Shown here in pieces: positions 2,543-16,097 of a DNA stretch of 64,000 nt. A program made the translations under genes and the position numbers. The DNA comes from a virus. The DNA is taken from the IMG/VR virus record IMGVR_UViG_3300029258_001887, one strand, 5' to 3'. Below the pieces are notes generated by a model. It was given only the letters and a program-made list of their open reading frames with translations, was not told where the DNA came from and ran no database searches. Positions within the stretch are counted from its first letter, which is position 1. Each line of letters opens with the position of its first letter.

Positions 2543-2894
2543 GGGGGTGAAAGGATTTCGACAGGGTCGAGGAAGGTTGTGTGGCGTGCCGAGGTTGTCA
2601 GTGGGCCTCGTAAAACAACTGGCAAAAAACCTTAAACGGCGAAGCTCGTTTTCGCATGGCTGCGTAAGTAGCCCGCTGATCGGAAGACTCCCGCTATTCC
2701 GTGAAGCGACGACCAGTGGGATAGTGTCGATCTGATACCTTGCCGGATCGCTACGAAACAACAGCAGGGCGTGGAAAAGCGAAAGCCTGTCGGTTGGCGT
2801 TCGTGGCTCCGAGAGTTAAAAAACTGACTACGCACGTAGAAGCAGAATTGGAATGACTTCTGGACCGGGCTCTCGGATGCCCGCACCTCCACCA
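2543..2894 (+). ncRNA. ssrA: tmRNA; tag reading frame (A)GEARFRMAA* at 2638-2667
   Basis: 5' GGGGGTGAAAGGATTTCGAC and 3' CACCTCCACCA form an acceptor stem with G3-U wobble; tag ending AA-stop; ~350 nt. Confidence 0.92.
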
Positions 2895-4215: not shown

Positions 4216-4785
4216 ATGCCGTCATGTGAACTCTGGAAAGATGTTACTGGATACGAAGGCAGATACCAAGTATCTGATTGTGGTTCTGTCAGAAGTTTAC
4301 CCAGGCCATGGCGAAAACAGTTGTTAATTTTGAAGCCTGGTAGAGATACCGATGGATACCAACAAGTTGCATTGCACAAAAATGGCAAAAGGGTCACCAG
4401 AAAAGTACATCAATTAGTGCTTGAGACATTCGGTGCTACTCGCCTATCGAAGGATGATGTAACCAGGCATCTGGATGGCAATAAAGATACCAACAGGATA
4501 GACAACTTGAAGTGGGGGAGTGTGGCCGAAAACGCAACGGATGCTGTCCAGCATGGAACATCACCGGGCTTTGGGAGTTGTGGTGAGAACAATGGGCAGT
4601 CAAAACTAACGTCTGACGACGTGCGTCGTATTCGACAACTACTCAGAACCGGAAAATACGAACAACAGAAGTTGGCTTCCTTATTTGGTGTTTCCAAGCA
4701 GACGATAACATTTATTAAGCAGGGGAAAACGTGGAAAGGTATTGGTGAACAAAATGAATCTGGACAAAATCAAGACAAGGGTTGA
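4216..4785 (+). CDS. NUMOD4-HNH homing endonuclease
   Basis: WKDVTGYEGRYQVSDCGSVRS; RHLDGNKDTNRIDNLKW; C-terminal HTH. Confidence 0.9.
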   Translation: MPSCELWKDVTGYEGRYQVSDCGSVRSLPRPWRKQLLILKPGRDTDGYQQVALHKNGKRVTRKVHQLVLETFGATRLSKDDVTRHLDGNKDTNRIDNLKWGSVAENATDAVQHGTSPGFGSCGENNGQSKLTSDDVRRIRQLLRTGKYEQQKLASLFGVSKQTITFIKQGKTWKGIGEQNESGQNQDKG

Positions 4786-5074
4786 TGAAATCAGTCGATC
4801 TACTGGCACCAAGAATCCGAAGGTATTGGTAGCCGAGTTGTGTGGTGTGATCAAGGGGCTTATCGGGGAACTTGAAAAGATTCAGAATCCTCCGGTCACT
4901 GTTTTGCCGAAGCGACTGCCGGAAGACCTTGAACTTCCGTTGAAATCCGAGCCGGTGGAATTGCCGCCGATGATGCCGCCCCCAACGGGTGAGCCGAGGC
5001 CGCAGTTTCCGTCACCGAATCCGAGTGTGTTGCCGCCGAGACGGCGCGAAGGGAATGCAGGAGACGCAGAGTAA
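4754..5074 (+). CDS. Pro-rich hypothetical protein
   Basis: ORF coupled (TAATG) to ligase gene. Confidence 0.6.
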   Translation: MNLDKIKTRVDEISRSTGTKNPKVLVAELCGVIKGLIGELEKIQNPPVTVLPKRLPEDLELPLKSEPVELPPMMPPPTGEPRPQFPSPNPSVLPPRRREGNAGDAE

Positions 5075-6036
5075 TGTTCGTAACCGAGCACACATGCGAT
5101 GTTGTTGAAGTCAAGCTGATGCCACACCCCAACGCTGATGCGTTGAGTCTGGTGATGGTTGGAGATTTCCAATGCGCTGTCCGCACCGCAGACTGGAATG
5201 ACGGCGATCTGGCTGTCTACATTCCACCGGACAGTATCGTGCCCGAGACCAAGGAATTTGAGTTTCTGGGCAAGCATCGCAGGATCAAGGCTCGGAAGCT
5301 GAGGGGCGAATGGTCTGTCGGACTACTGGTTCCTGCACCAGAAGGCGCGAAGGTGGGCGACGACTGCATGGAGCAGTTGGGGGTCGTTCATTATGAACCG
5401 CAGGTGCATGGCAACTTCAAGACCGGTGGAGACAATGTGACGCCGCCGCCTGGATTCATGCCAACATACGATGTGCTGAATTTCCGCAAATATTCTCGGT
5501 TGTTCCAGGCTGGTGAAGAGGTGATTGTCACCGAGAAGATACACGGAGCCAACGCACGATTCGCTTGTGTCAACGATGTGATGTACTGCGGGTCGCGCAA
5601 GTTTTGGAAGCAGGAAGACCCCAACAACCTGTGGTGGAAAGTGCTCCAGCAAAACACAGCCCTTGAAGCATGGCTGAGACATCATCAGGATTACGTGGTC
5701 TACGGTGAAGTGTTTGGGCAGGTTCAGAACTTGAAGTATGGATCGACCAATGGTGCTCTCTTCTTTGCTGCGTTCGACATTCTCCACGGCAATCGGTGGC
5801 TGGACTTTGACGAGGCGCACGAGATCGGTGCTCCGTTGCCTTGGGTGCCTTTGGTGCATCGCGGCCCATTTGACAAGGATCAGATATTGGCATTCGCGGA
5901 AGAGGACAGTTTGTGGCCAGGTGCGAAACATCATGCTGAGGGGGTAGTGGTTAAGCCGGTTCATGAACGCACCGATCCGCGAATCGGTAGAGTCCAACTG
6001 AAAGTGGTAGGTAACCGGTATTTGAGCAAGAGCTAA
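5074..6036 (+). CDS. ATP-dependent RNA ligase (DRB0094-like, N-terminal OB-like domain)
   Basis: Motif I EKIHG, YGEVFG, FAAFDI, EGVVVK, LKVVG; N-terminal PHPNAD. Confidence 0.88.
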   Translation: MFVTEHTCDVVEVKLMPHPNADALSLVMVGDFQCAVRTADWNDGDLAVYIPPDSIVPETKEFEFLGKHRRIKARKLRGEWSVGLLVPAPEGAKVGDDCMEQLGVVHYEPQVHGNFKTGGDNVTPPPGFMPTYDVLNFRKYSRLFQAGEEVIVTEKIHGANARFACVNDVMYCGSRKFWKQEDPNNLWWKVLQQNTALEAWLRHHQDYVVYGEVFGQVQNLKYGSTNGALFFAAFDILHGNRWLDFDEAHEIGAPLPWVPLVHRGPFDKDQILAFAEEDSLWPGAKHHAEGVVVKPVHERTDPRIGRVQLKVVGNRYLSKS

Positions 6037-6503
6037 TGTTACGGTTTGTTGACGGCAATATGTTTGATCTGGACGCCGACGTACTGGTAAATACGGTGAA
6101 TTGTGTTGGTGTCATGGGGTGCGGCGTTGCGCTAGCCACCAAACAACGGTATCCAGAGATATACAGGCGGTATCGTGCCGACTGCAAGAATGCCACGATA
6201 ATGCCGGGTGGCGTTTATGTTTATCGAGCCAATGACGATAAGCTCATTCTCCAGTTTGCCACCAAGGATCATTGGAGACAACCATCGCGGCTCGTTTATA
6301 TCCAAAATGGTCTTGATGCCCTGAAGAATATATTGCAACAGCAACCACATGGAACTGTCGTAGCGATACCGGCTCTCGGATGTGGGCATGGTGGCTTGGA
6401 CTGGGATACCGTCAAGGCAATGATCGAAAGTCGTCTGAGTGATTTGGATCACCTGGACATCCATGTTTTTCAGCCACAGGATTCCAGGGCATTGGGGAGG
6501 TAG
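6036..6503 (+). CDS. Macrodomain ADP-ribosylhydrolase, DarG-like
   Basis: GNMFD..LVNTVNCVGVMGCGVA..TKDHWRQPS..IPALGCGHGGLDW. Confidence 0.88.
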   Translation: MLRFVDGNMFDLDADVLVNTVNCVGVMGCGVALATKQRYPEIYRRYRADCKNATIMPGGVYVYRANDDKLILQFATKDHWRQPSRLVYIQNGLDALKNILQQQPHGTVVAIPALGCGHGGLDWDTVKAMIESRLSDLDHLDIHVFQPQDSRALGR

Positions 6504-6505
6504 AG

Positions 6506-6796
6506 ATGCCATACATCCCGAAAAAGGAACGTGAGAAATACGACTATCTGATCGATGCTCTGGCCCACATACTCAACACACGGGCCGACAGCGATGAACT
6601 ATCGGGAGAAATGAACTACGTCCTGTTTCGTCTGGCAAGGCTGTTGTGCGACGGCGAATCTGGCGGTAAGCGCGGATACGCAAGAATGGCTGTGGTGTCA
6701 TCTGCGCTCGCAGAAGCTCAGGCGGAATTCCGTCGTCGGGTGATGGCACCCTACGAAGACGAGAAAATCAGTTTGGCAGGAGATGTCGAACTGTGA
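6506..6796 (+). CDS. Conserved phage hypothetical protein (MPYI...PYEDEK family)
   Basis: MPYI, GEMNY, EFRRR..PYEDEK motifs; GGAGG RBS. Confidence 0.7.
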   Translation: MPYIPKKEREKYDYLIDALAHILNTRADSDELSGEMNYVLFRLARLLCDGESGGKRGYARMAVVSSALAEAQAEFRRRVMAPYEDEKISLAGDVEL

Positions 6797-6872
6797 GGGT
6801 TGGTAGCTCAGCTATGGTAAGAGCGTCGGTCTGAAAAGCCGAGCGTCGGTGGTTCGACTCCACCCCGACCCA
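6797..6872 (+). tRNA. tRNA-Phe(GAA)
   Basis: Cloverleaf; anticodon arm TCGGT-CTGAAAA-GCCGA. Confidence 0.95.
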
Positions 6873-6875
6873 TGA

Positions 6876-6949
6876 GGCGGTATAGCTCAATTGGATAGAG
6901 CACCGGCCTGTCGAGCCGGGTGGTGCGAGTTCGAGTCTCGCTACCGTCG
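6876..6949 (+). tRNA. tRNA-Asp(GTC)
   Basis: Cloverleaf; CCGGC-CTGTCGA-GCCGG. Confidence 0.95.
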
Positions 6950-6960
6950 TTGAATTTTGA

Positions 6961-7032
6961 TGCGGGGTGGAGCAGTGGTAGCTTAGCGGTTTCATAAGCC
7001 GAAGGTCGCCGGTTCAAATCCGGCCCCCGCAA
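6961..7032 (+). tRNA. tRNA-Met(CAT), initiator-like
   Basis: (T)GCGGGGTGGAGCAG start typical of fMet; GCGGT-TTCATAA-GCCGA. Confidence 0.9.
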
Positions 7033-7043
7033 GTCTAACTCTT

Positions 7044-7341
7044 GGCGACACAAGAGAGAGCATGAGAGAATCGCTTGCGATTCTCAAGAAATTGTGCCGA
7101 AACCGATGTCGCGGTAGTTAGCGGTGAACGCCGGAATAGTGACCGCCGAACGGAGTGCGAGGCCCGTATTGGTGACGGTTGTGCCGAATTGTTGGGGCGG
7201 CACACGACAGGTAGTCGGCTGTACGGCGGGGTGTTCCCGTGAAACCGCCAGCCCCGAATGTTAGGACCAGGGGCCAAAGTCAGTGTCGGCAAGGTTGGAC
7301 AATGTGACAGGGGACTGCTGGTCGAATCCAGCCCGTCGCCA
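7044..7341 (+). ncRNA. Unknown ~300-nt structured RNA with tRNA-like acceptor stem and T-arm
   Basis: GGCGAC...GTCGCCA terminal pairing; GCTGG-TCGAAT-CCAGC arm; several internal hairpins; no plausible ORF. Confidence 0.65.
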
Positions 7342-7371: not shown

Positions 7372-7671
7372 ATGTTGCGAGTAAGACAAGGTTCTGATGA
7401 AGTTGAAATTCGGTTCGACCACAAGTTTTGTCGGCCAGACGAGATAGAGGGGCTGACCGGTATCTGTGTTGACGAAGACCGTAGATGTACGTTGGCTACG
7501 CTGCAACTGAACGGATCGGTCATTAGTCGTGGGATGGCTGTGTGTCATCCGGCTGACAACTTCTGTCGGGCTACTGGCAGGAAAAAGGCTTTGGTCTATG
7601 CAATCCACCCTCTTGATAAGCAATTCCGCGCCGCTATTTGGCGTGAATACGAAGCCCAGTGTGGTTTCTGA
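7372..7671 (+). CDS. Conserved phage hypothetical protein
   Basis: G.A.CHP.D.F.R.TGRK.AL motif; GGAG RBS. Confidence 0.7.
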   Translation: MLRVRQGSDEVEIRFDHKFCRPDEIEGLTGICVDEDRRCTLATLQLNGSVISRGMAVCHPADNFCRATGRKKALVYAIHPLDKQFRAAIWREYEAQCGF

Positions 7672-15255: not shown

Positions 15256-15334
15256 TGGCTGATAGCTCAGTTGGTAGAGCAGTGGTAGGGTCGCTCCCTG
15301 CTACGGCGCGCAGGTTCGAGTCCTGCTCAGCCAG
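15256..15334 (+). ncRNA. tRNA-like RNA with non-canonical 9-bp anticodon arm
   Basis: Canonical acceptor, D and T arms; anticodon arm GTGGTAGGG-TCGCT-CCCTGCTAC. Confidence 0.8.
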
Positions 15335-16005: not shown

Positions 16006-16014
16006 GTGCGCAGA

Positions 16015-16097
16015 GGAAAGCGCCGCGGAATGGTCTGCAACTCGGTTTGAACCCGAGGGGGGCTGAAAGGCTCGGGGTTCGATTCCTCCGCTTTCCG
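16015..16097 (+). tRNA. tRNA-Ser(TGA), 8/4 cloverleaf
   Basis: 8-bp acceptor GGAAAGCG/CGCTTTCC, 4-bp T-stem, long V arm, G73. Confidence 0.85.

Follow-up and report, generated by a model that had tools for sequence, protein, structure and literature searches.

Genomic locus

The window, by which we mean the whole 64,000-nucleotide (nt) stretch of DNA that was analysed, comes from the IMG/VR virus record IMGVR_UViG_3300029258_001887. This record is 160,681 bp long, 97% complete according to CheckV, and contains 21 tRNA genes called by ARAGORN. On comparative evidence, the segment 7171-7341 (+) of the window is a conserved single gene for a tRNA-shaped RNA of 171 nt, referred to below as the unit. 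Genes for tRNA-Phe, tRNA-Asp and tRNA-Met are found at 6797-7032, between a gene encoding a DUF6899 protein and the RNA. The last of the three, tRNA-Met(CAU) at 6961-7032 (+), was found by both ARAGORN and Rfam. The tRNA genes here, like the unit, do not encode the CCA end. An open reading frame (ORF) of 99 amino acids (aa) without a known family follows at 7372-7671 (+); its start codon is located 30 nt downstream of the RNA, with AGGGAGAAG in between.

Homologues and boundaries of the RNA gene

Related loci, numbered here with the letter L, were reached via the RNA ligase encoded upstream, the DUF6899 protein and the 99-aa protein, and further loci came from a motif pattern scan of IMG/VR and JGI metagenome contigs. 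Including the window, ten distinct copies of the unit were found, the nine others on contigs of uncultured phages. Six copies belong to subtype A (window, L041, L002, L078, L071 and L075) and four to subtype B (L007, L031, L011 and L016). The length of the conserved unit ranges from 135 to 175 nt.

A covariance model, R1, was built from the four subtype B copies, leaving the window out. R1 matched the window end to end over 7171-7341 with a score of 41.2 bits and an expectation value (E) of 3e-12. It also aligned end to end to L041 and L002, and gave further matches in L078, L071 and L075. According to R1 searches the unit is present as a single copy per genome; no copy was found in the complete relatives G001, G003 and G004 or in two other records. 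The unit starts 2-4 nt after a tRNA gene, either tRNA-Met or tRNA-Glu, in seven copies; the 152 nt homologue of L002, for example, begins 3 nt after tRNA-Met. In the window the distance to tRNA-Met is 138 nt.

The metagenome pattern scan gave 33 matches, among which only L031, L036, L037, L041 and L056 were true members. Applied to 185,579 prokaryote species genomes, the pattern gave 26 matches, all of them rejected by R1 and none a member. A search of the phage GenBank collection matched nothing but the tRNA-Met part. The matches in the JGI contigs L030 (996-1163), L032 and L053 are chance matches and not family members. They brought up a 168 nt stretch that has GGAGCGG at its start, a T-arm and TCGCTCC-A at its end and a second T-arm-like hairpin inside; L030 has no Rfam match at the gathering score.

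Rfam offered no family for the unit, the sequence block 5' of it or the longer version in L007, neither at the gathering threshold nor at E<=10. Over 7033-7341 the models for tRNA, tRNA-Sec, the transfer-messenger RNA (tmRNA) clan, group I intron, RNase P, signal recognition particle (SRP) RNA, Y RNA, GOLLD and ROOL were all silent at E<=10. ARAGORN made no call at 7171-7341, and its call of a 96 nt tRNA-Ile in L011 is a forced partial fit. An initial annotation of positions 7044-7341, made from the letters of the window, had described an unclassified phage noncoding RNA with a tRNA-like acceptor stem and T-arm, and had noted no G3-U70 pair, no tag ORF and no RNase P or SRP signatures. All of this is upheld; the third acceptor pair is U3.G70.

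Secondary structure and covariation

The unit can be divided into a tRNA-like frame and an expanded variable region. In brief, the proximal 5' strand GGTGACGG (7171-7178) pairs over 8 bp with 7333-7340. The two ends of the RNA form the acceptor stem in each of the ten copies; this stem measures 8 bp in subtype A but 6-7 bp in subtype B. The acceptor 5' strand at 7171-7178 (+), GGUGACGG, contains the U3.G70 wobble, and all eight positions are paired in each of the six subtype A copies. Within subtype A the stem changes at pairs 1, 3, 4 and 7 among G-C, A-U and G.U. Pair 3 is U.G in the window and C-G in most copies, and none has G3-U70. At pair 6 the subtypes differ, A having C-G and B having G-C. 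The acceptor 3' strand CCGUCGCC and the discriminator A7341 occupy 7333-7341 (+) and are followed by UUAG. Six copies have A as the discriminator and the other four have G; UU comes next in nine of the ten copies, and none of them encodes CCA.

The T-arm, GCUGG / UCGAAU / CCAGC at 7317-7332 (+), has five of five pairs in all ten copies, with stem variants such as GUUGG/CCGAU and UUCGG/CCGAA. Its loop has 6 nt (UCGAAU) in subtype A, the window included, and the canonical 7 nt (UUCGAAU or UUCGACU) in subtype B. The branch formed by the acceptor and T stems is 13 bp long in subtype A and 11-12 bp in subtype B. H1 at 7181-7203 (+) is a D-arm-like hairpin with a 6-bp stem, paired in ten of ten copies in eight variants; its loop AAUUGUUGGGG begins with A, ends with GGG and carries the conserved motif UGUURGGG. 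At the position of the anticodon arm stands H2 (7205-7217, +), a mini-hairpin of 4 bp with the loop AGGUA. Its stem is found in six variants, all paired (CGAC/GUCG, CGGC/GUCG, AGGU/ACCU, UUGU/GCAA, UCAC/GUGA and CUGC/GCAG). The H2 loop has 4-5 nt across the family (AGGUA, UGGA, UGGAA), and a 7-nt anticodon loop is absent.

The expanded variable region is a predicted pseudoknotted domain of about 90 nt in the window, consisting of H3, H4, H5 and a pairing of the H3 loop. The H3 hairpin at 7225-7249 (+) shows a compensatory change between the subtypes, with GGCGG/CCGCC in A and GGUGG/CCACC in B. The strand GUUCCC in its loop (7233-7238, +) pairs with GGGGAC (7310-7315, +), located immediately 5' of the T stem. 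The register of this pseudoknot is identical in all ten copies, with the variants GUUCCC/GGGAAC, GUUCCC/GGGGAC, GUCCCC/GGGGGC, GUCCCU/GGGGGC, GUCCU/AGGAC and GUCU/AGAC, the last of which is a co-deletion on both strands in L016. H4 at 7251-7274 (+) has the stem GCCCC/GGGGC and the loop motif GGACC. The stem varies (GUCCA/UGGAC, GUCCC/GGGGC, ACCCC/GGGGU and UUCCC/GGGGA, among others) and the motif is kept, even in L071 where the stem is nearly lost. H5, GUCA...UGAC at 7279-7308 (+), is found in subtype A and absent from subtype B. It takes the form GUC-NNN-GAC in L041, L002 and L075, has 5 bp in L071 and is extended in the window and L078. The extension has 22 nt in the window (7283-7304) and occurs, in related form, only in L078.

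All helices of the predicted fold are backed by compensatory changes. A hand segmentation of the ten distinct copies left every helix paired in every copy, with many stem variants. In a model-fitted alignment of seven copies (A8), 99.5% of the cells were paired and 18 of 29 pairs changed on both sides, compared with 0-5 in slid controls. An unfitted MAFFT alignment of the six subtype A copies (A12) gave 100% pairing for the acceptor, H2, H3 and T-arm helices. The pseudoknot was likewise 100% paired there, one of its pairs being UA in three copies, CG in two and UG in one. The T-arm, the 3' acceptor strand and the helices at 7181-7203, 7225-7249 and 7251-7274, all named in the initial annotation, are thus both conserved and covarying. 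The most conserved parts of the RNA are the interior loops and the pseudoknot.

Other tertiary contacts were less clear. No consistent register was found for pairings between the H2 and H4 loops or between the H1 and T loops. A pairing of GGG in the H1 loop with CCC in the H3 loop is possible; it is invariant and competes with the pseudoknot.

The L002 contig (IMGVR_UViG_3300037247_000655) carries another tRNA-shaped RNA at 4240-4318 (+), with 21.5 bits against R1 and no ARAGORN call. Its acceptor, D and T arms are normal; in its anticodon arm a stem of 6 bp carries the 11-nt loop AGCAGGACCAA. The GGACCAA motif of the H4 loop also stands in this anticodon loop, an apparent case of module reuse. 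This RNA is unique to that genome.

The upstream spacer block

The initial annotation had started the RNA at 7044, correctly placed 11 nt after tRNA-Met, and had given it a size of about 300 nt with a closing stem between GGCGAC (7044-7049) and GTCGCC-A (7335-7341). It further listed the T-arm (7317-7332), the helices at 7066-7085, 7181-7203, 7225-7249 and 7251-7274, and a long-range pairing of TGCCGA (7095) with TCGGCA (7286). Each of these complementary segments is present in the window. The comparison of copies, however, indicates that the extra 127 nt 5' of the unit belong to an unrelated spacer block.

This block of 132 nt, at 7035-7166 (+), contains GGCGAC at 7044, the hairpin at 7066-7085 and TGCCGA at 7095. 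Apart from the window it is shared by L041 and L007 only. It is 97-99% conserved over these three contigs, with one mismatch in L041, and its flanks are unrelated among them; the other seven of the ten RNA copies do not have it. In L007, a close relative, the order is 5' block, tRNA-Glu(CUC) and then a 138 nt tRNA-like RNA with its own 5' acceptor strand. The tRNA-Glu gene thus stands between block and unit, which speaks against both the 300 nt size and the distal closing stem. The 3' strand has its conserved partner in the proximal 7171-7178, with 8 bp as opposed to 6 bp and an A.C mismatch for the distal GGCGAC. The hairpin at 7066-7085 is not conserved in the family either, being replaced in L007 by about 112 nt of unrelated sequence. 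TCGGCA (7286), finally, falls within the H5 extension; L041, the closest copy, lacks the extension, and that of L078 differs in sequence and occurs without a 5' block. Conservation in the family is likewise missing for the long-range helix.

Folded by itself, the block does no better than shuffled sequences, with z values of -1.5 in the window and -0.2 in L007. We also considered the block as a decayed duplicate of the 5' end of the unit. The two share GGCGAC and an exact 10-nt repeat, TTGTGCCGAA; their alignment is not significant (58-70 of 1000 shuffles reach the score), and the idea was rejected. In L007 the block adjoins a short cysteine-rich ORF, which was not searched against any family library.

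Subtypes and recombination

The two subtypes differ as a set. Subtype A combines an 8-bp acceptor stem with a T loop of 6 nt and the presence of H5, whereas subtype B has 6-7 bp, the canonical 7-nt T loop and no H5. RNA identity between copies is 71-89% and that of the flanking protein genes 63-86%; the RNA value is the higher one in most pairs. The pair formed by the window and L076 is an exception to RNA identity above that of both flanking genes. The genes flanking the RNA of the window are nearest to a subtype B lineage, the DUF6899 gene being 86% identical to that of L076 and the RNA 79%. As the flanks are closest to this lineage although the RNA is of subtype A, it follows that recombination has exchanged the RNA types.

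Genomic neighbourhood

The genes upstream of the unit encode a phosphoribosyltransferase, an HNH endonuclease, an RNA ligase (PF09414), a macro-domain protein and the DUF6899 protein. The gene order RNA ligase (PF09414 with a PHA02142 OB domain), macro domain in some cases, and DUF6899, found here at 5074-6796 (+), is kept in many related marine-sediment contigs. It looks like a conserved module for RNA repair or ADP-ribose processing. Between 5900 and 8300 promoter-like sites are absent, as are terminator-like sites beyond position 6215.

The 99-aa gene is intact after the RNA in seven of the ten copies. It is broken in L041, where the RNA is intact, and in L016 and L071 a different gene comes next downstream, the 99-aa gene of L071 standing one gene later. 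In distant relatives the 99-aa gene comes straight after the DUF6899 gene and the RNA is missing from between them; the block made up of the tRNAs and the RNA is therefore an insertion. The idea that the 99-aa protein is an obligate partner of the RNA was rejected, since the gene is broken in L041 and relatives have the gene without the RNA. The 99-aa family has 54 homologues, all unnamed. A profile of five members gave, as the only structural leads, weak matches in the PDB, over the same region, with Mycobacterium tuberculosis Rv1738 and Rv2632c and the phage anti-CBASS protein Acb4 (9e4w), at E values of 0.04-0.28.

Several relatives carry other elements at this locus. In L073 (1300-1500) the RNA is replaced by an ORF in which an HNH-type motif was read by eye, and in L072 and L080 the RNA ligase gene nearby harbours an intein that has a LAGLIDADG domain. 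Together with the cysteine-rich ORF of L007 (2334-2523) and the varying tRNA content among relatives, these cases mark the locus as a hot spot for rearrangement and selfish elements.

Three more RNA genes of the window should be mentioned. A full tmRNA is found at 2543-2894 (+), with 132.9 bits against RF00023; it ends in CCACCUCCACCA and was not reported by ARAGORN. ARAGORN calls an 81-nt tRNA-Ala(CGC) at 15256-15334 (+), which scores 46.9 bits with the Rfam tRNA model. The anticodon arm consists of 9 bp (GUGGUAGGG / CCCUGCUAC) closed by a loop of 5 nt, and this tRNA-shaped gene therefore probably does not decode either. The region 16014-16097 (+) scores 32.2 bits with the tRNA-Sec model (gathering score 47) and has no ARAGORN call; it is probably a class II tRNA of the Ser type in front of a tRNA-Gln.

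Proposed function and alternative explanations

For 7171-7341 the new results appear to be the corrected boundaries, a set of ten distinct copies that fall into two subtypes, and a pseudoknot that covaries. Decoding is ruled against by the 4-5 nt loop of H2 and by the silence of the tRNA model on the unit. We favour the view that 7171-7341 probably encodes a stable, non-decoding tRNA mimic, matured by tRNA-processing enzymes and acting in trans. The unit would be co-transcribed with the neighbouring tRNA genes. RNase P would cut its 5' end at 7170/7171, freeing the 132-nt spacer, and the 3' end would be trimmed after A7341, with host enzymes adding CCA. Processing like that of a tRNA had also been proposed in the initial annotation, and is probably correct, given that no Rfam family matches and that seven of the ten copies lie 2-4 nt from a tRNA gene. 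The mature RNA may then act in trans by offering its acceptor/T-arm top half to a tRNA-binding factor, with specificity coming from the conserved loops UGUURGGG and GGACC and from the pseudoknot. The RNA is intact where the 99-aa gene is broken (L041) or where another gene lies downstream (L016, L071), which argues for independence from the downstream gene.

For such a mimic we infer, as the most likely single function, that it serves as a pseudo-substrate or decoy and engages a host enzyme or an antiphage toxin by which the tRNA body, the variable region or the CCA end is recognised; a decoy had also been considered in the initial annotation. As a more specialised version, we speculate that the RNA is a dedicated anti-defence decoy or inhibitor, in which the CCA-tailed top half and the knotted 'variable arm' trap a host antiphage enzyme that attacks tRNA at sites other than the anticodon. 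Candidate targets would be a Septu/PtuAB-type nuclease, directed at the variable loop, or a CCA-end-modifying toxin. This version is possible, with a low probability. If true, it would be the first function for a 50-year-old class of phage tRNA-like stable RNAs.

Several points weigh against the favoured reading. The ten copies come from related phages only and are a small sample, and the decoy role is purely inferred. No CCA-adding enzyme, SmpB or Ro/TROVE protein was found in the 160.7-kb genome, and the partners of the RNA are hence hypothetical. The discriminator is A or G and the branch has 13 or 11-12 bp, so that no single synthetase-type identity set is conserved. In addition, the minimum free energy (MFE) fold of the unprocessed 298 nt at 7044-7341 favours the distal stem over an enforced proximal stem, by 8.3 kcal/mol in the window and 6.7 kcal/mol in L041.

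This last point bears on the alternative that in this phage all 298 nt are functional. GGCGAC/GUCGCC would then be the closing stem, and the 5' block a domain paired to the 3' half. The MFE fold uses the distal stem together with UGCCGA/UCGGCA, the block is complementary to parts of the unit, and its near-identity in three contigs would fit a functional domain. The same fold, though, breaks the covarying H1 and H3 and ignores the pseudoknot, and folding the 298 nt alone gives -116.8 kcal/mol with a z of only -1.9. With a mismatched distal stem of 6 bp, a block that seven of ten members lack and that a tRNA-Glu gene separates from the RNA in L007, and no UCGGCA-bearing insert in L041, we regard this alternative as improbable. 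The unit may alternatively be a cis-acting processing signal, a tRNA-like punctuation mark that draws RNase P and 3' enzymes, separates the tRNA transcript from the downstream mRNA and sets the 5' end of the latter. The 30-nt distance to the 99-aa start codon, the intact 99-aa gene in seven of ten copies and the missing promoter-like and terminator-like sites would all suit such a role. For a mere cleavage signal, the most conserved parts, which are the interior loops and the pseudoknot, would be superfluous; the ordinary tRNAs of the array would do the same job, and the RNA persists in L041, L016 and L071 where the downstream gene is broken or different. We therefore consider a punctuation role rather unlikely.

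SerRS- and LeuRS-type synthetases (seryl- and leucyl-tRNA synthetases) ignore the anticodon and read the long variable arm, the core and the discriminator. Bacterial tRNA-Sec, which has an 8+5 bp branch and a D-type stem of 5-6 bp, is charged by SerRS. The unit could accordingly be thought of as an aminoacylatable tRNA-like carrier, charged by an anticodon-independent synthetase of this kind and serving as an amino-acid donor or an enzyme sink. Its full acceptor stem, purine discriminator, D-loop-like A...GGG and enlarged variable region would allow this, and subtype A shares the branch and the D-type stem with bacterial tRNA-Sec. The discriminator is not fixed, however, the branch length differs by subtype, there is no G3-U70 and the tRNA-Sec model has no match on the unit at E<=10, which makes a carrier unlikely. 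A further reading, in which the unit has no function of its own and is either the decaying pseudogene of a tRNA or tmRNA or a tRNA with an intron, is very improbable, even at a locus as prone to rearrangement as this one, with its HNH-motif ORF in L073, cysteine-rich ORF in L007 and varying tRNA content. It is contradicted by the compensatory changes in every helix over ten copies and by the better conservation of the RNA than of the flanking genes in most pairs, and a true tmRNA is already present at 2543-2894. The intron-containing tRNA, which the initial annotation had considered, fails on the 4-bp hairpin with a 4-5 nt loop in place of an anticodon arm. No such arm can be restored by splicing. 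The interior of the shortest copies has only about 100 nt, the halves of an anticodon arm are absent, and the group I intron, tRNA and tmRNA models gave no match.

For the favoured tRNA mimic, natural variation suffices to define the selected parts, namely the top half, three conserved loops and the pseudoknot, and the question of what phage tRNA mimics do becomes testable on a defined fold. Such genes are overlooked by tRNA finders and Rfam, the former missing or miscalling this family in the case of ARAGORN and the latter silent at E<=10.

Comparison with known RNAs

The unit fails the defining features of tRNA, tmRNA, Y RNA and intron-containing tRNA. It resembles tRNA (RF00005), class II tRNAs and bacterial tRNA-Sec above all, in its end-closed acceptor stem, T-arm, purine discriminator and D-arm-like hairpin, as well as in its array position, the spacing of 2-4 nt and the CCA that is not encoded; the 8+5 bp branch of subtype A recalls tRNA-Sec. 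It differs in that both the anticodon and its arm are lacking, in that the variable region spans 47-99 nt and includes a pseudoknot and, in subtype A, in the 6-nt T loop. Neither RF00005 (gathering score 29 bits) nor RF01852 matches the unit at E<=10.

With tmRNA (RF00023) the unit shares a tRNA-like top half without an anticodon arm and pseudoknot content, and the phage has a true tmRNA gene of its own 4.3 kb upstream. In contrast to tmRNA, it has neither G3-U70 nor a tag frame and lacks the long helix that joins the tRNA-like domain with a body, its interior being filled by hairpins. It has one pseudoknot where tmRNA has four, is less than half the size and gives no match with the tmRNA clan, and no SmpB is found in the phage.

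YrlA, a bacterial Y RNA, is a non-decoding tRNA imitator that is handled by tRNA-processing or tRNA-modifying enzymes. Its termini form the Ro-binding stem and its tRNA-like part is internal, whereas the termini of the unit form the acceptor stem and the 160.7-kb genome has no Ro/TROVE gene. Another non-decoding imitator handled by tRNA-processing or tRNA-modifying enzymes is the eukaryotic mascRNA (PMC11693755), which, unlike the unit, is a plain 61-nt cloverleaf cut from a long noncoding RNA.

The closest known RNA is RNA C, or species 1 RNA, of phage T4, which is an analogue and not a homologue. It is encoded by rnaC (139 nt, NC_000866 70908-71046), and RNA D is also called species 2 RNA. 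R1 run over the T4 tRNA region matches the T-arm only, at 9.6 bits, and there is no detectable homology. T4 rnaC lacks the UGUURGGG and GGACC motifs and the H3-loop pseudoknot of the family, and its terminal stem has five of seven positions paired as read from the record. T4 RNA C ends with a canonical T-arm, CCGGG-UUCGAAU-CCCGG, and an acceptor-like 3' strand, and the 3' end of the family is likewise built from a T-arm and an acceptor strand. T4 RNA C and D are stable RNAs whose genes, as here, end a phage tRNA array and stand next to a homing-endonuclease gene (segB in T4), and the sizes are similar, 119-139 nt in T4 and 135-175 nt in the family. The function of the T4 RNAs is unknown (PMC3014915, PMC9697503); known since the 1970s, they have so far had neither a function nor more than a few comparable relatives. 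The family provides a second, independent example of the T4 RNA C/D design, in which an anticodon-less tRNA frame is placed in a tRNA array beside RNA-repair genes and homing endonucleases.

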